Virus record (IMG/VR): IMGVR_UViG_2718217787_000003
DNA: 12,066 nucleotides
From: a virus
Taxonomy: Duplodnaviria > Heunggongvirae > Uroviricota > Caudoviricetes
Reading direction: 5' to 3' (one strand)
Shown: piece after piece, positions 1,379-9,336 of the stretch
Layout of the letters: each line of letters opens with the position of its first letter
How positions within the stretch are numbered: the first letter of the stretch is position 1
Notes under the pieces: generated by a model
Databases searched by the model: none
Told to the model about the DNA's origin: nothing
The model's input: the letters and a program-made list of their open reading frames with translations, nothing else
Translations under genes and position numbers: made by a program

Positions 1379-1678
1379 ATGAAACTTAAATATTCTGGCT
1401 TAACTGCCAGCGGCAAAACTCGCACTAAATTCATGTGCGGGGATATTTACCGCGATAAGTACGGCGGCACGGTAATGATTAAGGGCGTGGAGGAACGGCG
1501 CGTAACCTACCATCGTGAAGGCTACGAATATGATTGCGTGATGCCTGTTTATCAGTTCCGGCGTGATTTTTCTCTGGTACAGGCAGCGCCCCGCAGTAAA
1601 CCAACCAGCAGGGAGAAAGCACGCGCCAATATTCAGGAAATAAAAAAGATGCTTAACGTATTCAGGGGTAAAAAATGA
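1379..1678 (+). CDS. Hypothetical basic protein, 99 aa, immediately upstream of and coupled to the replication gene
   Basis: ATG at 1379 with GGAG about 10 nt upstream. Its TGA stop overlaps the primase ATG (ATGA at 1675-1678). Lys/Arg-rich C-terminus. Confidence 0.5.
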   Translation: MKLKYSGLTASGKTRTKFMCGDIYRDKYGGTVMIKGVEERRVTYHREGYEYDCVMPVYQFRRDFSLVQAAPRSKPTSREKARANIQEIKKMLNVFRGKK

Positions 1679-3807
1679 AACTGGCACCGAACGTAAAAAA
1701 ACAGCCACGCGGAATAAAACACAAAGACACAGAGGTGATTATTTTCGCGGGTAGTGATGCGTGGGCACATGCAAAACAGTGGCAGGAGCAGGACGGCCCC
1801 GCATCCGGCGATAATGTGCCTCCTGTGTGGCTTGGGGAGCAGCAGTTATCAGAACTGGATAAGCTGCAAATTGTGCCGGAAGGCAGAAAATCCGTGCGCA
1901 TATTCAGGGCCGGACATCTTGCACCAGTAATGATCAAGGCGATTGGTCAAAAGCTGGCGGCGGCTGGTGTACAGGATGCAAATTTTTATCCTGAGGGTAT
2001 GCACGGTCAGAAGGTGGAGAACTGGCGCGAATATCTGGCCCGTGAGCGGCAGAATCTTTCTGATGGTCTGGTTATTGAGTTTCCGGTAAAGAAAAAAGAT
2101 ACCGGAAGCCATAGCGATGACGAATTAAAGCCACGCGTTGAAAGTCGCGCCGATGGTGTTTTCTGGGTAACGCCCAAAGTGGATAAGCAGTCAGGCGAAA
2201 TTATCCGGCCTGAGACGTGGTTATGTTCTCCGCTTGAACTACTGGGAACGGGGACGATCGGTAAAGAGCATTACCGCGTGATGCGCTGGAAAAAAACCGC
2301 AAACCATGAAGTCATCACAATGGCGATCCCGTGTGGTGGTATCGGCGACCGTGACGGCTGGCGGTTACTTAAAGATCACGGGCTGAACGTGACAACCAAC
2401 GGCAAATACAGGGCAATCCTGGCGGACTGGATGCAGTTAAGCGGAAGCCATGAGGAATGGCAGTTAAGCACAACAACGGGCTGGCATTTTGGCGCGTACA
2501 TCATGCCGGACGGTTCGATCATTGGTGAATCTGAAAAACCGATCCTGTTTACCGGAAAAAGCGCCGCGATTAACGGTTATTCCGTGGCGGGCACGGCGGA
2601 TGGCTGGCGCGACAGCGTGGCGCGGCTGGCTGGCGGTAATGCCTCAATGATACTGGGTGTGGCAACGTCACTGGCAGCGCCTTTAATTGGCCTTGTGGGT
2701 GCTGACGGCTTCGGGGTGCATCTTTTCGAACAGTCATCGGCAGGTAAGACCACCACGCAGAACATCGCATCAAGTTTATGGGGAGAGCCGGACGCGCAGC
2801 GGCTGACCTGGTACGGCACGGCGTTAGGTATTGCCAATGAGGCCGAGGCCCATAATGACGGGCTTTTACCACTGGATGAGATAGGCCAGGCCGGAAATGC
2901 GCGGGAAGTGTCAACGTCTGCTTATACGCTGTTTAACGGTTCAGGGAAATTGCAGGGGGCGAAGGATGGCGGCAACAGGGAGATCAAACACTGGCGAACG
3001 GTGGCAATCAGCACCGGAGAAATGGACGTTGAGACATTCCTCAAAAGTGAGGGGATAAAAGTTAAGGCGGGGCAGCTTGTCCGACTGCTTAACGTTCCGA
3101 TGGAAAAAGCCACGAAATTTCACGAATACAGCAACGGTAAGGAACATGCTGACGCGTTAAAGGATGCCTGGACAGCAAATCACGGGGCGGCGGGTCGTGA
3201 GTGGGTTAAATGGCTGGCAGGCCACCAGCAGGAGGCAAAGGACACGGTAAGGGAATGCCGCGAACGGTGGCGCAACCTGATACCGGAGAGTTACGGCGAG
3301 CAGGTCCACCGCGTGGGTGAACGTTTCGCCATACTGGAGGCCGCGCTTGTGCTTTCCGGTCATGTAACTGGCTGGGTCGTGCAGGAATGCCGCGACGCGA
3401 TACAGCATAACTTTAATGCCTGGGTGAAGGAGTTCGGCACGGGTAACAGGGAATTTAAACAGATGGTTGAACAGGCTGAGGCGTTTTTGTCGTCGTTTGG
3501 GTTTAGCCGCTACCTTCCGTACCCCAATACAGATGAGCGTGATTTACCGATTAAAGAGCTTGCCGGATACAGAAAAGGGAGCATTCGCAACGAAGATGAC
3601 GAGATGCGCTATTACACGTTCCCGCACGTGTTTGAGAGTGAGATAGCGAAGGGATTTAATCCGGCGCATTTTGCGCGTGCCCTGGATGCTGCCGGAATGC
3701 TGGAGAAGGGAAGCGATCGCCGATACAAAAAAAAGGCGCTGGGCAAGATTGGGGGTAAGCAGCATGTTTTTTACGTGCTGATGTTCCAGCCTGATGATGA
3801 AGATTAA
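1675..3807 (+). CDS. Replication initiator: primase-associated (DUF927-like) region plus P-loop NTPase (Pri-Rep type of satellites/PICIs), 710 aa
   Basis: A 2.1-kb ORF with SD AGGGG 7 nt upstream of ATG 1675. Walker A motif GVHLFEQSSAGKTT at aa 347-360 (nt about 2713-2754). Its position immediately upstream of an iteron array matches the primase-then-ori layout of P4-like satellites and PICIs. Domain names are from motif recognition, not a search. Confidence 0.85.
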   Translation: MKLAPNVKKQPRGIKHKDTEVIIFAGSDAWAHAKQWQEQDGPASGDNVPPVWLGEQQLSELDKLQIVPEGRKSVRIFRAGHLAPVMIKAIGQKLAAAGVQDANFYPEGMHGQKVENWREYLARERQNLSDGLVIEFPVKKKDTGSHSDDELKPRVESRADGVFWVTPKVDKQSGEIIRPETWLCSPLELLGTGTIGKEHYRVMRWKKTANHEVITMAIPCGGIGDRDGWRLLKDHGLNVTTNGKYRAILADWMQLSGSHEEWQLSTTTGWHFGAYIMPDGSIIGESEKPILFTGKSAAINGYSVAGTADGWRDSVARLAGGNASMILGVATSLAAPLIGLVGADGFGVHLFEQSSAGKTTTQNIASSLWGEPDAQRLTWYGTALGIANEAEAHNDGLLPLDEIGQAGNAREVSTSAYTLFNGSGKLQGAKDGGNREIKHWRTVAISTGEMDVETFLKSEGIKVKAGQLVRLLNVPMEKATKFHEYSNGKEHADALKDAWTANHGAAGREWVKWLAGHQQEAKDTVRECRERWRNLIPESYGEQVHRVGERFAILEAALVLSGHVTGWVVQECRDAIQHNFNAWVKEFGTGNREFKQMVEQAEAFLSSFGFSRYLPYPNTDERDLPIKELAGYRKGSIRNEDDEMRYYTFPHVFESEIAKGFNPAHFARALDAAGMLEKGSDRRYKKKALGKIGGKQHVFYVLMFQPDDED

Positions 3808-3829
3808 TCCCCTGTGTGAGGAAAAAAAT

Positions 3830-4145
3830 TGCGGGTTATGCGGGTTATCCTGTGTATAAGTGTATTAAGTGTATGAATATAAAGGAAATCAATAACCCGC
3901 ACGTAACCCGCAAAAGGGCATTTATAACCCGCAAAAGCACGATTATAACCCGCAGGCGAATAACTGAAGTAACACCGGACAGTCATGCGTAACCCGCAGA
4001 AAAAACCCCGTTTGCGGGTTATTTTGAGCGTTTTGCGGGTTACGTGGTGAGCAAATAATAAACAGGGTGTTTTGCAACATGCTGATATAAAAGGGTAAAA
4101 AATGGTTAGCACGCTAAGATAACCCAATAACCCGCATAACCCGCA
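3830..4145. repeat. Iteron-type origin of replication
   Basis: Seven direct copies of TAACCCGCA (3893-3901, 3904-3912, 3925-3933, 3946-3954, 3990-3998, 4128-4136, 4137-4145) and four inverted copies TGCGGGTTA (3830-3838, 3839-3847, 4013-4021, 4034-4042), with a degenerate copy at 4120-4127. Three GTGTAT-containing repeats with roughly 9-10 bp spacing at 3852-3880. A (TA)n AT-rich tract lies just downstream at 4153-4170. No credible ORF on the + strand here. Confidence 0.8.
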
Positions 4146-4179
4146 CATGTTTCTATATATATATAAATTGAGGTGGCAA

Positions 4180-4431
4180 ATGACCAGAACACGCAGAGAC
4201 AGAACAGAGCCGAAATATAAAGCGTTAGATATAACAGAGCTGGCCTTAAAGGTGGCAATCAGAACGATAGACCGACACGTAGGGGAAGGATACGCGAAGG
4301 AACATCCCGACCTGATAAGCGCATTCATGACCACAGCAGCGGCAAACTTTGCCACGTTGACAGAACGGGAGATTGCCGAAGCGGAACAGGTAACAACCAT
4401 CAACGTTAAAACCGGAGAGTTGAAATCATGA
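4180..4431 (+). CDS. Hypothetical protein, 83 aa
   Basis: ATG at 4180 preceded by SD GAGGTGG (4170-4176); track ORF 4147..4431 trimmed. Stop overlaps the next start (ATGA at 4428-4431). Confidence 0.55.
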   Translation: MTRTRRDRTEPKYKALDITELALKVAIRTIDRHVGEGYAKEHPDLISAFMTTAAANFATLTEREIAEAEQVTTINVKTGELKS

Positions 4432-4733
4432 GCGAACCAAAATTTGGTGAAAAACTTTACAAGCACAACGGACGGATCACGATTCAGCAAATAAGCGCAG
4501 CTACACCAGGCTGGTGGGTTGAAACAGACGAAGGATCCTCACCCGTGGCATCATGGGCGCTTTGTGTGCTTAGTTACCCTGACCGCGATGTGTATCAGGA
4601 TATTCTGCCTGTGATATCCACTGACAAAGGCATGAAACCCGTAGACATCAAAAACATGGGTTTTCAGTGCGTAATGCTCACTGAAAAAATGATGGAAGAG
4701 ATGAAAAAGAATAACGCCGGATCGCTTCACTGA
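4428..4733 (+). CDS. Hypothetical protein, 101 aa
   Basis: ATG at 4428 overlaps the upstream stop. No recognisable motif (MSEPKFGEKLYKHNGRITIQQ...). Confidence 0.55.
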   Translation: MSEPKFGEKLYKHNGRITIQQISAATPGWWVETDEGSSPVASWALCVLSYPDRDVYQDILPVISTDKGMKPVDIKNMGFQCVMLTEKMMEEMKKNNAGSLH

Positions 4734-4742
4734 GGTGGCAAT

Positions 4743-5153
4743 ATGACAGCACAAATTGCAGCTTACGGGCGGCTGGTGGACGACCCGCAGGTAAAACAGA
4801 CCAGCAAGGGTACACCGATGACGCTGGCGCGTATGGCGGTATCGCTGCCATGCAGCCAGGCACAGGATGGACAGGCGACGTTATGGCTATCGGTCATCGC
4901 ATTTGGTAAGCAGGCCGACTTCCTGGCTAAACATCAAAAAGGCGACGTTGCCAGCGTATCCGGCACGATGCAGGTCAGCCAGTGGACCGGACAGAACGGG
5001 GAAACGCGGCAGGGTTATCAGGTTATTGCAGACAGCGTAATCAGTGCCCGTGCGGCACGTCCTGGTGGGAGCCGACGCAAGACCACAGGCACACAGGGTA
5101 ATCAGCCACCAGCGGGAGGCGATGACCCTTACGGTGATGATATTCCGTTCTGA
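4743..5153 (+). CDS. ssb: Single-stranded DNA-binding protein, compact, 136 aa
   Basis: SD GAGGTGG (4732-4738) before ATG 4743. OB-fold-like core (...WLSVIAFGKQADFLAKHQKGDVASVSGTMQVSQWTGQNGETRQGYQVIADSV...) followed by a Gly/Pro-rich linker and the canonical SSB acidic C-terminal tip DDIPF (E. coli SSB ends DDDIPF). Confidence 0.85.
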   Translation: MTAQIAAYGRLVDDPQVKQTSKGTPMTLARMAVSLPCSQAQDGQATLWLSVIAFGKQADFLAKHQKGDVASVSGTMQVSQWTGQNGETRQGYQVIADSVISARAARPGGSRRKTTGTQGNQPPAGGDDPYGDDIPF

Positions 5154-5165
5154 GGGGTGGGGACG

Positions 5166-5438
5166 ATGGTACATGACCGCATAGCGGAAGAACTGGAGGC
5201 GAAAGGCTTTTACCGGAGAGCGTCGGCGCGATGGGGTGAAGTCATGCAACTGGTGGAGACAGACAAGGAACGGCATCAGGTTACGATGCGACGGCTGGAA
5301 TGTTCCAGGAAGGCACAGAGGCCACCGGAGCCGCCGGATAATTACGGAGACCTGAAAAAGGCGGTCGATCGCACTTATGCCGAAATGGGTATGGATGGTG
5401 CTGGTGATGAAATATGGCGAAATTACCAGGACAGATAA
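5166..5438 (+). CDS. Possible PerC-family transcriptional regulator, 90 aa
   Basis: ATG at 5166 with SD GAGGGGTGGGGA upstream; the track ORF starts at GTG 5157. N-terminus MVHDRIAEELEAKGFYRRASARWGEVM resembles the PerC/Pch family signature as I remember it; family call is tentative. Followed by a terminator. Confidence 0.55.
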   Translation: MVHDRIAEELEAKGFYRRASARWGEVMQLVETDKERHQVTMRRLECSRKAQRPPEPPDNYGDLKKAVDRTYAEMGMDGAGDEIWRNYQDR

Positions 5439-5444
5439 TCACAC

Positions 5445-5468
5445 AGCCGGAGCAATCCGGCTTTTTGT
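5445..5468 (+). terminator. Rho-independent terminator after the PerC-like gene
   Basis: Stem AGCCGGA (5445-5451), loop GCAA, stem TCCGGCT (5456-5462), then TTTTGT (5463-5468). Confidence 0.6.
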
Positions 5469-5485
5469 CATGTTTTGTAAATTAT

Positions 5486-5635
5486 TTGTTCGTGGTTGTT
5501 CCACGTTGTTCGCTGACCGGATCGGCATATTTTACCCGAACTGAATCATGATTATTCTCGCCCGTGGTGCCAGGACGCTGGGGCCACTTTCCCGCCTGTT
5601 AATGTGCTCGCCAATATTCATTACCAGGCGGGAAA
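5486..5635. promoter_or_regulatory. Leader of the head operon with tandem decamers and an 11-bp inverted repeat
   Basis: Three tandem 10-bp units TTGTTCGTGG / TTGTTCCACG / TTGTTCGCTG (5486-5515), containing the palindrome CGTGG-TTGTT-CCACG (5491-5505). An 11-bp perfect inverted repeat TTTCCCGCCTG (5588-5598) / CAGGCGGGAAA (5625-5635) with a 26-nt spacer. No clear sigma-70 consensus identified. Confidence 0.3.
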
Positions 5636-5725
5636 ACGATCGGTGCGATTGCTGATTTCCTTATGAAAAACGGTTGAGTGTTTGCCGCGTCCTGGAGTTC
5701 CTTACTTAACTTCAGGACTTTTTTT

Positions 5726-6883
5726 ATGCCGAGAATAATCGAATTACGCCAGCAGAAAACCGCCATTAAAAATCAGATGCGCGACATGCTGGAGAACGCG
5801 GAAAAAGAAAACCGCAGCCTTAACGATGCTGAGGGCGCAAAATTTGACGAATTACGCGCTAAAGCTGAATCCCTCGATAAAGACATCTCCCGCCTTGAGG
5901 CCGTTGCTGACGAAGAGCGCAGTAAACCAGGCAAAAACAGCCAGACCACTGACCCCGCCGAACTACGTCACTACATTCTGACAGGTGAAACCCGCGCATT
6001 GAGTACAGGCGTTCCCGCTGATGGTGGTTATACCGTTATCCCCGAACTGAACACCGAAATCATGCGAATGCTGACGGATGAATCCACCATGCGCCGCATC
6101 TGTACCGTGAAGAAAATCAGCAGCAACGAGTTTAAGCAGCTTGTTTCCGCTGGCGGTGCGACCGTTAACCACGGTGAAGAGGGTAAGGCACGCGAACAGA
6201 CCAGCACCCCGCAGATTAACGAGGTGAGCATTAAGCTGTATCCGGTCTATGCGTACCCGCGCACCACGCAGGAAATCGTGGATTTTTCCGATGTGGACAT
6301 CCTTTCATGGCTGACGGGCGAGATTGGCGACACCTTCACGGAAACCGAAGAAAGCGATCTGGTTGTGGGCGACGGTGACAAAAAAGCAAAAGGTTTTTTA
6401 TCCGTACCCCGTGCAGAGAAGAACGACAAAGAGCGTGATTTTGGTACGTTGCAGGTAATTAAACCTTCCGAATCTCTGGCGTGGACATCTGCGGACCCGC
6501 TGATCGACCTGAAATTTGCATTACGTAAAAAATACCGCAAAAACGCGGTTTGGGTGGTTAACTCCACGACGGCGGCAAAACTCCAGAAGGTGAAGAACGC
6601 GAACGGTGATTACATCTGGCGCGACCGTTTACAGGCGGGTGATCCTGATACGTTGCTGGGCCTTCCGGTCGAATATCTGGAGTTTATGCCTGATAACGTT
6701 ATTGCCCTGGGTGACTTCAAACGCGGTTACTACATTGTTGATCACGAAACAGGTGTTCGCACCAGACCGGACAACCTCACAGAGCCGGGCTTTATCAAAA
6801 TTTTCACGCAGAAATATTTAGGCGGTGGCGTGGTGGATTCGAACGCTATAAAGATTCTGGAACTGCCGCAGGACGACGATTAA
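5726..6883 (+). CDS. Major capsid protein, HK97 fold, with N-terminal coiled-coil delta (scaffold-like) domain, 385 aa
   Basis: ATG at 5726 with AGGA 8 nt upstream; the track ORF begins at GTG 5678. The N-terminal 90 aa are coiled-coil-like (IELRQQKTAIKNQMRDMLENAEKENRSLNDAEGAKFDELRAKAESLDKDISRLEAV), followed by a body typical of HK97-family capsid proteins. A prohead protease gene follows directly. Confidence 0.9.
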   Translation: MPRIIELRQQKTAIKNQMRDMLENAEKENRSLNDAEGAKFDELRAKAESLDKDISRLEAVADEERSKPGKNSQTTDPAELRHYILTGETRALSTGVPADGGYTVIPELNTEIMRMLTDESTMRRICTVKKISSNEFKQLVSAGGATVNHGEEGKAREQTSTPQINEVSIKLYPVYAYPRTTQEIVDFSDVDILSWLTGEIGDTFTETEESDLVVGDGDKKAKGFLSVPRAEKNDKERDFGTLQVIKPSESLAWTSADPLIDLKFALRKKYRKNAVWVVNSTTAAKLQKVKNANGDYIWRDRLQAGDPDTLLGLPVEYLEFMPDNVIALGDFKRGYYIVDHETGVRTRPDNLTEPGFIKIFTQKYLGGGVVDSNAIKILELPQDDD

Positions 6884-7496: not shown

Positions 7497-8708
7497 ATGT
7501 GGCCTTTCAGAAGAAAAAAAGAGCAGCGCAGCATGACGCTTGATGAGTTTATGGCGCTGGCTGGCACATCGAACACGGGGGCGGGTGAGTACGTATCATC
7601 GGGGACAGCGGAATCACTGCCCGCCGTCATGAACGCCGTCACGGTCATCTCTGAGGCGGTGGCTACCATGCCGTGTTACCTGTACCTGGTACGCAATGAG
7701 AAGGGGAAGGAGGCCCGAGAGTGGCTTGATTCTCATCCGGTCGATCACATCCTCAACGAGCGCCCGAACGCATGGCAAACCCCCTACCAGTTTAAGCGAA
7801 TGATGATCCGCCACTGCCTGTTAAACGGTAATGCTTATGCGGTGATTCGGTGGGGGCGTGATGGTTTTCCGGTGGCTTTACATCCTTACCCGCCGCAGTC
7901 GGTGAACGTGGAGCAGACAGGTGAGCATAACTGGCGCTACTGCATCACTGACGCCTACACCGGAAACACCCGCAACTATTTACCGTGGGAGGTTCTCCAC
8001 CTTCGTTACTCCACGGATGACGGTTTTATGGGGCGCTCACCTGTAACCATCTGCCGCGAATCGCTGGGGCTTGGGCTGGCCCAACAACGCCACGGCGCGA
8101 GCGTGATGCGTGATGGCATGATGGCGGCAGGGGTTATCACGTCAGGCGAGTGGCTGGACGGCGTGAAGGGTAAACAGGCATTAGCCGCACTGGAACGCTA
8201 CAAAGGGGCCAGAAACGCCGGAAAAACGCCCATCCTTGAAGGGGGTATGAGCTATCAGCAGCTGGGCATGAGTAATCAGGATGCTGAATGGCTGGCCTCC
8301 CGTCGCTTCACCATTGAAGACATCGCCCGAATGTTCAACGTCTCGCCGATTTTTTTGCAGGAATACAGCAACAGCACCTACAGCAATTTCAGCGAGGCAA
8401 GCCGCGCATTTCTCACCATGACGATGCGCCCGTGGCTGGCGAACTTTGAGCAGCAGATAAAAAACGCCCTGCTGGTGGCCTCGCCTGTACCTGGTATCCG
8501 GTATCAGGTGGAGTTTGACAGCGCGGACCTGTTACGGGCCACACCTGGCGAACGCTTTGCCACCTATGAACGCGGCATCAAATCCGGCGTTATGTGCCCG
8601 AACGAAGCCCGCGAACGTGAAGGGCTGTCCCCGCGTGATGGTGGTGATGAGTTCAGCCAGGCATGGAAACAGGAAGTAAAAATCAGCGAGGGAGAAAAAC
8701 CGGAATGA
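7497..8708 (+). CDS. Portal protein, HK97 family, 403 aa
   Basis: ATG at 7497, 1 nt after the protease stop, with SD GGGGGTG upstream. Size and sequence character fit HK97-type portals. An alternative start at ATG 7539 is possible. Confidence 0.85.
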   Translation: MWPFRRKKEQRSMTLDEFMALAGTSNTGAGEYVSSGTAESLPAVMNAVTVISEAVATMPCYLYLVRNEKGKEAREWLDSHPVDHILNERPNAWQTPYQFKRMMIRHCLLNGNAYAVIRWGRDGFPVALHPYPPQSVNVEQTGEHNWRYCITDAYTGNTRNYLPWEVLHLRYSTDDGFMGRSPVTICRESLGLGLAQQRHGASVMRDGMMAAGVITSGEWLDGVKGKQALAALERYKGARNAGKTPILEGGMSYQQLGMSNQDAEWLASRRFTIEDIARMFNVSPIFLQEYSNSTYSNFSEASRAFLTMTMRPWLANFEQQIKNALLVASPVPGIRYQVEFDSADLLRATPGERFATYERGIKSGVMCPNEAREREGLSPRDGGDEFSQAWKQEVKISEGEKPE

Positions 8709-9043
8709 ACATAGGGCGACTGCGTGACAGGATAACGATTCAGACCCTGAAACAGACCAGGGATATAACCGGCGAAATACTCGAAACGTGGGTGGACGGT
8801 CACACACTCTGGGCAAGCGTGAACATGATCAGCAGCAAGGAGGCCATTTCATCGGGTGCAGAACTGGCGACTGGAACGGTAAGGATATGGATACGCTACA
8901 GGAAGGACATCAACGCCACCAGCCGGATAAAGGTCAATACGGGGCCGCTGGCGGGGCGTGTACTGAATATCATCGGGCAGCCGCTGCCGGATGCCGCCAG
9001 GACACGCCTTGAAATTCTTTGTCGTGAGGGCGCGGAAAAATGA
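8705..9043 (+). CDS. Head closure / head-tail joining protein (SPP1 gp16-like), 112 aa
   Basis: ATG at 8705 overlaps the portal stop (ATGA); track ORF 8663..9043 trimmed to this ATG. MNIGRLRDRITIQ...RIWIRYRKDI...LEILCRE matches the head-tail joining family pattern as I recall it. Confidence 0.75.
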   Translation: MNIGRLRDRITIQTLKQTRDITGEILETWVDGHTLWASVNMISSKEAISSGAELATGTVRIWIRYRKDINATSRIKVNTGPLAGRVLNIIGQPLPDAARTRLEILCREGAEK

Positions 9044-9336
9044 CAGAAGAACTTATCACCCTGGAAGAAGTGAAACTCCATTGCCGCATCGATGGCGACG
9101 AGGAAGACCAGTTAATCAGCGGATACATCGCCGCATCGCTTGAGGCGTGCCAGATACACATAGGCAGGCGCTTTGATGACGGGCTGGAGTTCACGCCAGC
9201 CATAAAGATTGGCTGCATGATGTTTATCGCTCACCTGTATGAAAATCGCCAGATTGTCGCGGATAACGCAAAAACACGCGTACCCATGACGATTGGTGCA
9301 CTCTGGACGGCTTACCGTGATGTGGGGGTGTACTGA
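9040..9336 (+). CDS. gp6-like head-tail connector protein, 98 aa
   Basis: ATG at 9040 overlaps the upstream stop (ATGA). N-terminus LITLEEVKLHCRIDGDEEDQLISGYIAAS is typical of gp6-like connector proteins. Confidence 0.75.
   Translation: MTEELITLEEVKLHCRIDGDEEDQLISGYIAASLEACQIHIGRRFDDGLEFTPAIKIGCMMFIAHLYENRQIVADNAKTRVPMTIGALWTAYRDVGVY

Follow-up and report, generated by a model that had tools for sequence, protein, structure and literature searches.

A compact single-stranded DNA-binding protein encoded by a capsid-forming PICI of E. coli O157:H7

[quoted passage not shown] The question is raised by ssb, an ATG-to-TGA open reading frame (ORF) at positions 4743..5153 (+) of the 12,066-nucleotide stretch of DNA that we analyzed (the window), which encodes 136 amino acids plus a stop codon and equals RefSeq WP_000126693.1, "single-stranded DNA-binding protein." A Shine-Dalgarno sequence, GAGGTGG (4732..4738, +), lies 4 nt 5' of the ATG and overlaps the stop codon of the upstream ORF, and the C-terminal sequence of the product is ...GGDDPYGDDIPF. 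The identity proposed in a preliminary description of this locus is borne out by profile searches, which place the protein in the SSB family and in no unrelated one. Pfam PF00436 (SSB) matches with 62.5 bits (gathering score, 26; E, 4e-17) over residues 5-99 and hence independently of the tail; it is the only Pfam family to match at E up to 0.01. The NCBIfam model TIGR00621 is matched with 57.7 bits (cut-off, 53.95), and PHROG 44, "single strand DNA binding protein," with 141 bits over residues 1-136, so that all three profiles are passed above their cut-offs. A sequence search of solved structures with the same protein matched 26 SSBs. An antisense ORF at 4887-5276 (-), 129 aa in length, was considered as an alternative reading and rejected, since profile support falls on the plus frame and 12 of the 16 nucleotide differences from the corresponding gene of the satellite EcCIEDL933 are at third positions of that frame. 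The ORF is a genuine bacterial-type OB-fold SSB.

The predicted structure agrees with this assignment. An AlphaFold2 model, built with 17 family members as input, folds residues 1-103 (4743..5051, +) into an OB-fold ssDNA-binding domain with a pLDDT of 75-93, with strands at residues 2-11, 16-19, 25-36, 44-54, 69-82, and 88-101 and a helix at 55-62. Together with Foldseek, the model describes a five-stranded OB barrel with a helix between strands 3 and 4. The top 50 Foldseek hits in the PDB were all bacterial SSBs, at a probability of 1.00 and with target-normalised TM scores of up to 0.77, and these structural neighbours are SSBs of the homotetramer type. Membership in the T7 gp2.5/Enc34-type SSBs was also considered and does not apply, given that PF00436 is the sole Pfam match and that the structural neighbours are of the homotetramer type. 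Of the four aromatic stacking residues of E. coli SSB (EcSSB), three are retained: W54, F60, and W88 correspond in alignment A1 to W48, F54, and W81 of the island protein, all three of which are invariant in the family, whereas the position of W40 is taken by C37. Likewise, the tetramer-interface residue H55 of EcSSB is replaced by L49. The island SSB presumably binds ssDNA and forms tetramers, but because the equivalents of W40 and H55 are not conserved, its DNA-wrapping mode and tetramer stability may differ from those of EcSSB.

The OB domain is followed by a 33-aa disordered tail, with pLDDT values below 50 across residues 104-136. Its first part, the linker (5052..5123, +; aa 104-127, ARPGGSRRKTTGTQGNQPPAGG), is indel-variable among relatives, and the length forms found in the family (136, 140, 141, 146, and 149 aa) differ in this segment only. 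The second part is an acidic C-terminal tip (5124..5150, +; aa 128-136, DPYGDDIPF), so that the protein has a linker and an acidic tip ending in Pro-Phe, with DDPYGDDIPF at its C terminus. The claim that the DDIPF tail has been retained is correct, as the last five residues are identical to those of EcSSB. Within the family, alignments A1 and A2 show no variation at P135 and F136 and a single valine at I134, which is thus nearly invariant. The description of the tip as host type holds for its acidic character and its IPF end, but DDIPF itself is less fixed: among the 120 closest cluster representatives the tip is DDIPF in 75, DNIPF in 25, and DGIPF in 4, the last being also the tip of the prototype EcCIEDL933 SSB, and Klebsiella relatives with 70-72% identity in the OB domain (L005-L007, around 8001-8444) end in YDDDF, not IPF. 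This variation across the family weakens the idea that the host tip has to be mimicked exactly.

How does the protein relate to the SSB of its host? The E. coli chromosomal SSB (P0AGE0; PDB 1eqq and 1eyg) has the same fold and the same succession of OB domain, disordered linker, and acidic tip, and shares with the island SSB the DDIPF end as well as W54, F60, and W88. Our reference for it is 178 aa long and identical in sequence to PDB 1eqq_A; the island protein is indeed about 40 aa shorter, as first described, at 136 versus 178 aa (difference, 42). The OB domain, at 103 aa in the model versus ~112 aa in EcSSB, accounts for about 9 of the 42 missing residues, owing to the loss of 4 N-terminal residues and a 3-residue loop (alignment A1), and the tail, at 33 versus ~65 aa, accounts for about 32. 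The two tails also differ in character, the island SSB having a basic RRK patch and EcSSB having Gly/Gln/Pro-rich repeats instead. Alignment with the host SSB thus gave a mixed outcome, in that the tip and three aromatics match but identity over the OB fold is only 26%. The idea that the protein is a trimmed host SSB was rejected, as this level of identity indicates a separate lineage. Orthology to host-type or plasmid-type SSBs was likewise rejected by the NCBIfam cut-offs: the enterobacterial chromosomal SSB model NF006533 scores 28.2 bits (cut-off, 260) and the F-type plasmid SSB model NF010292 scores 25.0 bits (cut-off, 265).

A search of 1.84 billion representative proteins returned 7,463 relatives with E values of 1e-3 or less, 328 of which had values of 1e-10 or less. 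Among the best 150 relatives, 127 are near full length (110-210 aa); their median length is 136 aa, and Phe is the last residue in 75 of the 127, for the most part in the form acidic-x-[IL]PF. A compact protein with an acidic PF tip is thus the norm in this clade, and the small size that had been highlighted is not a distinguishing feature of the protein but that of a separate lineage.

Among other mobile elements, the F-type plasmids (NF010292/PRK13732) and phage P1 also encode SSBs with a host-like acidic tip, and F and P1 SSBs are able to replace E. coli SSB. In contrast to the island protein, with its low score on the plasmid model, these are close paralogues of the host SSB. The genetic context differs as well: plasmid ssb genes lie in the leading region, which enters the recipient as ssDNA, whereas the island ssb lies beside a theta-type iteron origin in a satellite that is delivered as dsDNA. 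The best matches in the phage collection are the short SSBs of temperate Gram-positive phages (PHROG 44; Staphylococcus, Listeria, and gut phages), which are similar in size and have the PF00436 OB fold in common with the island SSB but are only 29-35% identical to it, over the OB domain alone. Since no protein in the phage collection exceeds 35% identity, recent borrowing from a sequenced phage was rejected.

The claim that the gene belongs to a mobile element is upheld by its location. At 100% identity, the window matches the chromosomes of E. coli O157:H7 MB41-1 and two other O157 strains, and its gene content identifies the element integrated there as a capsid-forming phage-inducible chromosomal island (cf-PICI) of ~15 kb. 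The left part of the island comprises an integrase, an HTH regulator, Icd-like genes, small ORFs, a DUF4222 gene, and a DUF927 replicase gene; two small ORFs, the SSB gene, and a gene for a PerC-family regulator follow in the middle; and the right part encodes an HK97-type capsid, prohead protease, portal, head closure, and connector proteins, an HNH protein, TerS, TerL, and a small ORF, with Pfam calls in the window for capsid, S78 protease, portal, HNH, and Terminase_4. Genes for tails or lysis are missing from the annotated island, which runs from int to TerL plus the small ORF. This gene content has the cf-PICI layout, with int, an AlpA-type HTH gene, and pri-rep on the left and capsid to TerL on the right within ~15 kb, as described for the prototype EcCIEDL933 (10.1101/2022.09.08.507074). 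Sixteen of the 17 window proteins have counterparts in EDL933 that are 90-100% identical and conserved in order. The EcCIEDL933 SSB (WP_000126692.1) is the same gene in the same position (rep, ori, small ORF, ssb, perC, capsid operon) and of the same length; the two genes are 96% identical at the DNA level, and the proteins differ at only two residues, both in the tail, namely, S109N and the one that turns the tip into DGIPF. The islands differ in their sites, that of EcCIEDL933 being between roxA and phoQ whereas the window island lies among rcn genes, upstream of thiM, with rcn genes flanking it on one side and thiM on the other; they differ also in an extra 101-aa ORF between orf83 and ssb that is present in the window island but not in EcCIEDL933. 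The integrase of the window island is different from that of EcCIEDL933 with its roxA-phoQ site. In MB41-1 (L001), two places match ssb itself and three match a wider 1.4-kb block. Considering these multiple matches together with the distinct site and integrase, this strain probably carries two or more related satellites.

The immediate surroundings of ssb form the replication module of the satellite. Upstream lies the gene for the Pri-Rep replicase (1675..3807, +), a protein of 710 aa with a DUF927 helicase-type domain that is the replication initiator of the satellite; it matches Pfam DUF927 with 166 bits and PHROG 1139, "DNA primase," with 637 bits and, with all 710 residues aligned, is 100% identical (rounded) to the EcCIEDL933 protein. 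The interval behind it (3830..4165) is a probable replication origin. The 9-mer TAACCCGCA occurs there 11 times without mismatch, in both orientations, between 3830 and 4145; an AT-rich spacer is at 4043-4127, and a (TA)6 run is at 4154-4165. All 11 matches of TAACCCGCA fall within this interval, as opposed to an expectation of 0.14 from 200 shuffles, not one of which gave as many as 11. The 7+4 copies recur in EcCIEDL933, whose replicase is the same, and examined PICIs with other replicases have zero copies of these iterons. In Gram-negative PICIs, ori is found immediately 3' of rep and consists of two iteron sets flanking an AT-rich region (PMC6092414), and the iteron layout in the window agrees with that description. 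Judging from these sequence features, the iteron region at 3830-4165 is probably the replication origin of the island.

Between the putative origin and ssb are two genes to which no function is assigned. The first gene of the ssb operon, orf83 (4180..4431, +), encodes 83 aa, or 94 aa if translation starts at 4147. It matches PHROG 1231 with 172 bits, the match beginning at residue 12 of the long form, and RefSeq places the start at 4180. A ribosome-binding motif, GAGGTGGCAA, is found at 4170-4179 and again at 4732-4741, before the ATG of orf83 at 4180 and before that of ssb, respectively, and this shared motif supports 4180, not 4147, as the start of orf83. In all E. coli PICIs examined, orf83 precedes ssb. 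The second gene, orf101 (4428..4733, +), encodes 101 aa, overlaps the upstream ORF by 4 nt, and matches PHROG 27268 with 232 bits; no Pfam, NCBIfam, or PADLOC match was found for its product, and the gene is absent from EcCIEDL933 (L002), where orf83 overlaps ssb directly. Directly after ssb comes a gene for a PerC-family regulator (5157..5438, +; RefSeq start, 5166), with a Pfam PerC score of 148 bits and a weak, sub-threshold match to the ANR anti-virulence regulator model. PerC homologues are known PICI cargo; the EcCIMP1 homologue represses LEE1, while those of EcCIEDL933 and EcCICFT073 are reported to be without effect on it (PMC11773190). Activation of the late operon and virulence cross-talk are candidate roles for the gene beside ssb. 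The four genes orf83, orf101, ssb, and perC are tightly packed, with overlaps or gaps of 3-9 nt, and the block is closed by a terminator-like hairpin plus T-run (5445..5470, +), a seven-pair stem with 5 GC pairs (stem-loop at 5445-5462) followed by TTTTT. A scan of 3700-5800 found no sigma-70-like promoter, so that co-expression of ssb with rep is deduced only from the arrangement of the genes and the distances between them. Nor did any part of the window match an Rfam family at gathering score, and the P4-like CI/seqA RNAs reported in some PICIs were not detected.

A comparable arrangement exists in staphylococci. In SCCmec elements, an SSB gene lies beside the gene for the Cch (DUF927/MCM-like) helicase, and the SCCmec SSB has been described as structurally unusual. 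The likeness, as a chromosomal island that pairs a replicative helicase of the DUF927 family with its own SSB, is one of gene arrangement, and the replicase of the window matches the NCBIfam model of the SCCmec Cch helicase below its cut-off. The island SSB is found with a non-DUF927 primase too, so the pairing is not a specific one.

Taken together, we consider it likely that the island SSB is an auxiliary replication factor that coats ssDNA at the origin and contacts, via its tip, the partners of the host SSB. Following induction of the island by a helper phage, the DUF927 Pri-Rep would bind the TAACCCGCA iterons that directly precede the ssb operon and would unwind the adjacent AT-rich DNA. 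The island SSB, produced from the same rightward transcription unit, would then coat the exposed single strands, while its disordered ...DDIPF tail would probably contact proteins that normally bind the tail of host SSB, such as Pol III chi, DnaG primase, PriA, exonuclease I, and others, and in this way the host replisome would come to copy the island. An extra SSB would probably be useful when the island, the helper phage, and an SOS-damaged chromosome compete for the host SSB pool. Recruitment of host proteins via the tail is a reasonable supposition by analogy, as the logic of tip and partners is taken from the established biology of EcSSB, of which the competition of DnaG and chi for the SSB C terminus is an example (PMC3632105). 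The contacts between tail and host proteins, the timing of expression, and the benefit to the island are all inferred.

Is the gene maintained for a function at all? Conceivably, ssb might be a decaying passenger from a phage ancestor with no current function, given that it is absent from one cf-PICI lineage and that truncated, "partial" copies occur among the database clusters. The pattern of substitutions tells otherwise. Across seven loci, OB-domain dN/dS was 0.00-0.20 for all informative pairs, in lineages that include saturated synonymous sites, and relative to EcCIEDL933 the OB domain has zero non-synonymous changes at a dS of 0.16, which indicates that it is under strong purifying selection. 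The low ratios, at 0-0.2 across lineages with saturated synonymous sites, speak against decay, as do the ORF, found undisrupted (≥80% coverage) in 717 complete E. coli genomes, the conserved Shine-Dalgarno sequence and tight operon, the invariant terminal PF, and the nearly invariant Ile before it. This pattern of selection effectively refutes the notion of a passenger, to which we attach hardly any credence.

A gene under selection need not be essential, and the distribution of ssb suggests that it is not. We base this part on a collection of E. coli genomes and on the search of 1.84 billion representatives; a single-protein scan of genome contigs gave five loci (three from Klebsiella and two distant), too few for a taxonomic survey. 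DNA homologous to ssb is present in 1,052 of 5,426 complete E. coli genomes (~19%), at up to six places per genome. The cf-PICI portal of the window type is found in 533 of the complete genomes, fewer than have ssb, because the SSB family occurs also in classical and helper-embedded PICIs. In the classical Gram-negative PICIs and the helper-embedded PICI, ssb follows a primase gene and a small ORF each time. Furthermore, WP_000126693.1 or its EcCIEDL933 form is encoded in cf-PICIs with a different replicase, a "DNA primase family protein." Co-evolution of the SSB with the DUF927 replicase was rejected accordingly, as the identical SSB occurs with a different primase family whereas the iterons track the replicase. 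Finally, a sister cf-PICI lineage with a portal ~78% identical to that of the window (L013, E. coli MS 69-1) is without ssb and perC, and a cloned rep-ori segment of EcCICFT073 alone replicates in E. coli (PMC6092414). The SSB is thus auxiliary, not essential or replicase specific, in view of the two replicase types, the ssb-less sister cf-PICI, and replication from rep-ori alone; the last two points also mean that its benefit may be small or conditional.

Several of these loci show features of their own. In L013, positions 2852-4450, in place of ssb and perC, contain a small forward ORF and two reverse hypothetical genes of 510 and 765 bp, and the two reverse genes are candidates for accessory or defence cargo. 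The PICI with a member of the SSB family in E. coli strain 104 (L004, 4279-16621) lies inside the major capsid gene of a lambda-like prophage, which is thereby in two fragments, and carries HEPN and DUF262 genes as well. Such a "helper-embedded PICI" arrangement has been described (PMC10111431). In a classical PICI (L003), the stretch at 8654-9073 corresponds to 1675-2100 of the window: the first ~140 residues of the DUF927 replicase are 71% identical to the N terminus of the "DNA primase family" replicase of L003, which is otherwise different, and this points to shuffling of domains among PICI replicases. The Klebsiella relatives of the SSB (L005-L007) follow a 942-aa Zn-ribbon-Toprim-DUF927 primase-helicase; in L005 a portal fragment comes after the SSB relative, suggesting a degraded or different kind of island. 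In addition, three records filed as E. coli plasmids of 32-187 kb (CP088587.1, CP061267.1, and NZ_CP031350.1) contain SSBs that are 98-100% identical over 121 aligned residues; these records may be satellites in an episomal or excised state, plasmids with an integrated satellite, or contigs that were mis-assigned.

The dispensability of ssb raises the possibility that the protein acts mainly on the helper phage or the host and not on island replication. Carrying a host-like tip on a foreign OB core, it might titrate host proteins that interact with SSB or coat the ssDNA of the helper phage, and so interfere with or assist helper replication and SOS signalling. That the basic replicon can do without ssb, as the cloned rep-ori segment (PMC6092414) and the ssb-less sister cf-PICI illustrate, and that ssb is not tied to one replicase type would both fit such an activity; interference functions are a known part of the PICI repertoire, and for one E. 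coli PICI an assisting effect on helper replication is reported (PMC11773190). In every inspected E. coli locus that has ssb, on the other hand, the gene adjoins rep and ori, which is the usual place for replication genes and therefore counts against a primary action on helper or host. In addition, no interference phenotype has been mapped to ssb, and PMC11773190 makes no mention of an SSB. We consider this explanation unlikely and favour an auxiliary function in replication of the island itself.

It had also been suggested that the protein might be a trigger or target in phage defence. Conceivably, the SSB could take part in an arms race, either as a decoy against defences that sense SSB or ssDNA or as a trigger that causes incompatibility. 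Retron-Eco8, AbpAB, Hna, DARNA, and DRT10 of E. coli have been reported to be activated by phage SSBs, and the SSB that triggers DRT10 carries an FDDDIPF tip. Retron-Eco8, the best studied of the systems that sense SSB, is triggered, though, by a T7 gp2.5-type SSB independently of the C-tail and not by host-type SSB (PMC13402713), and the island SSB is of the host-type PF00436 class. PADLOC, run on the SSB together with nine further proteins of the island, yielded no relevant match, only a negligible HNH hit; ssb is located in the replication block and not in one of the usual accessory slots; and its OB domain is under strongly purifying, not diversifying, selection. A role in defence or counter-defence is therefore speculation, and we give it only a very slight chance compared with an auxiliary role in replication.

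A broader variant, to which we assign a small probability, is that the satellite SSB is more than an extra SSB and acts as a conditional factor in the conflict between phage, satellite, and host. For instance, it could keep the island replicating when a helper phage or a defence system disables or senses the SSB of host or phage. Alternatively, it could itself be sensed by AbpAB, Hna, DARNA, DRT10, or retrons and so determine the host range of the PICI. The patchy presence of ssb, in ~19% of genomes, at up to six copies, and with a sister lineage that lacks it, would fit a conditional role of this type.

In conclusion, the description of this locus as an element-encoded SSB gene is correct but already known in kind and annotation. 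Not only the RefSeq entry of the exact protein but also the source names of most related clusters read single-stranded DNA-binding protein, and a published survey places SSB, along with Primase and DUF5906, among the replication genes of PICIs that are found together with mapped origins (PMC10111431). As a discovery the finding thus carries little weight, concerning a named protein in a described satellite family with SSB listed among PICI replication genes. At the same time, the terms "ssb" and "single-strand" are absent from the text of two cf-PICI papers, the SatelliteFinder survey, and the original Gram-negative PICI paper (PMC6092414), and no functional study was found in the literature. 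What remains is the question, apparently never asked, of why many enterobacterial PICIs carry an SSB when rep-ori suffices. A clear phenotype of ssb, if there is one, would add a detail to the replication biology of satellites and might link satellites to the defences that sense SSB.
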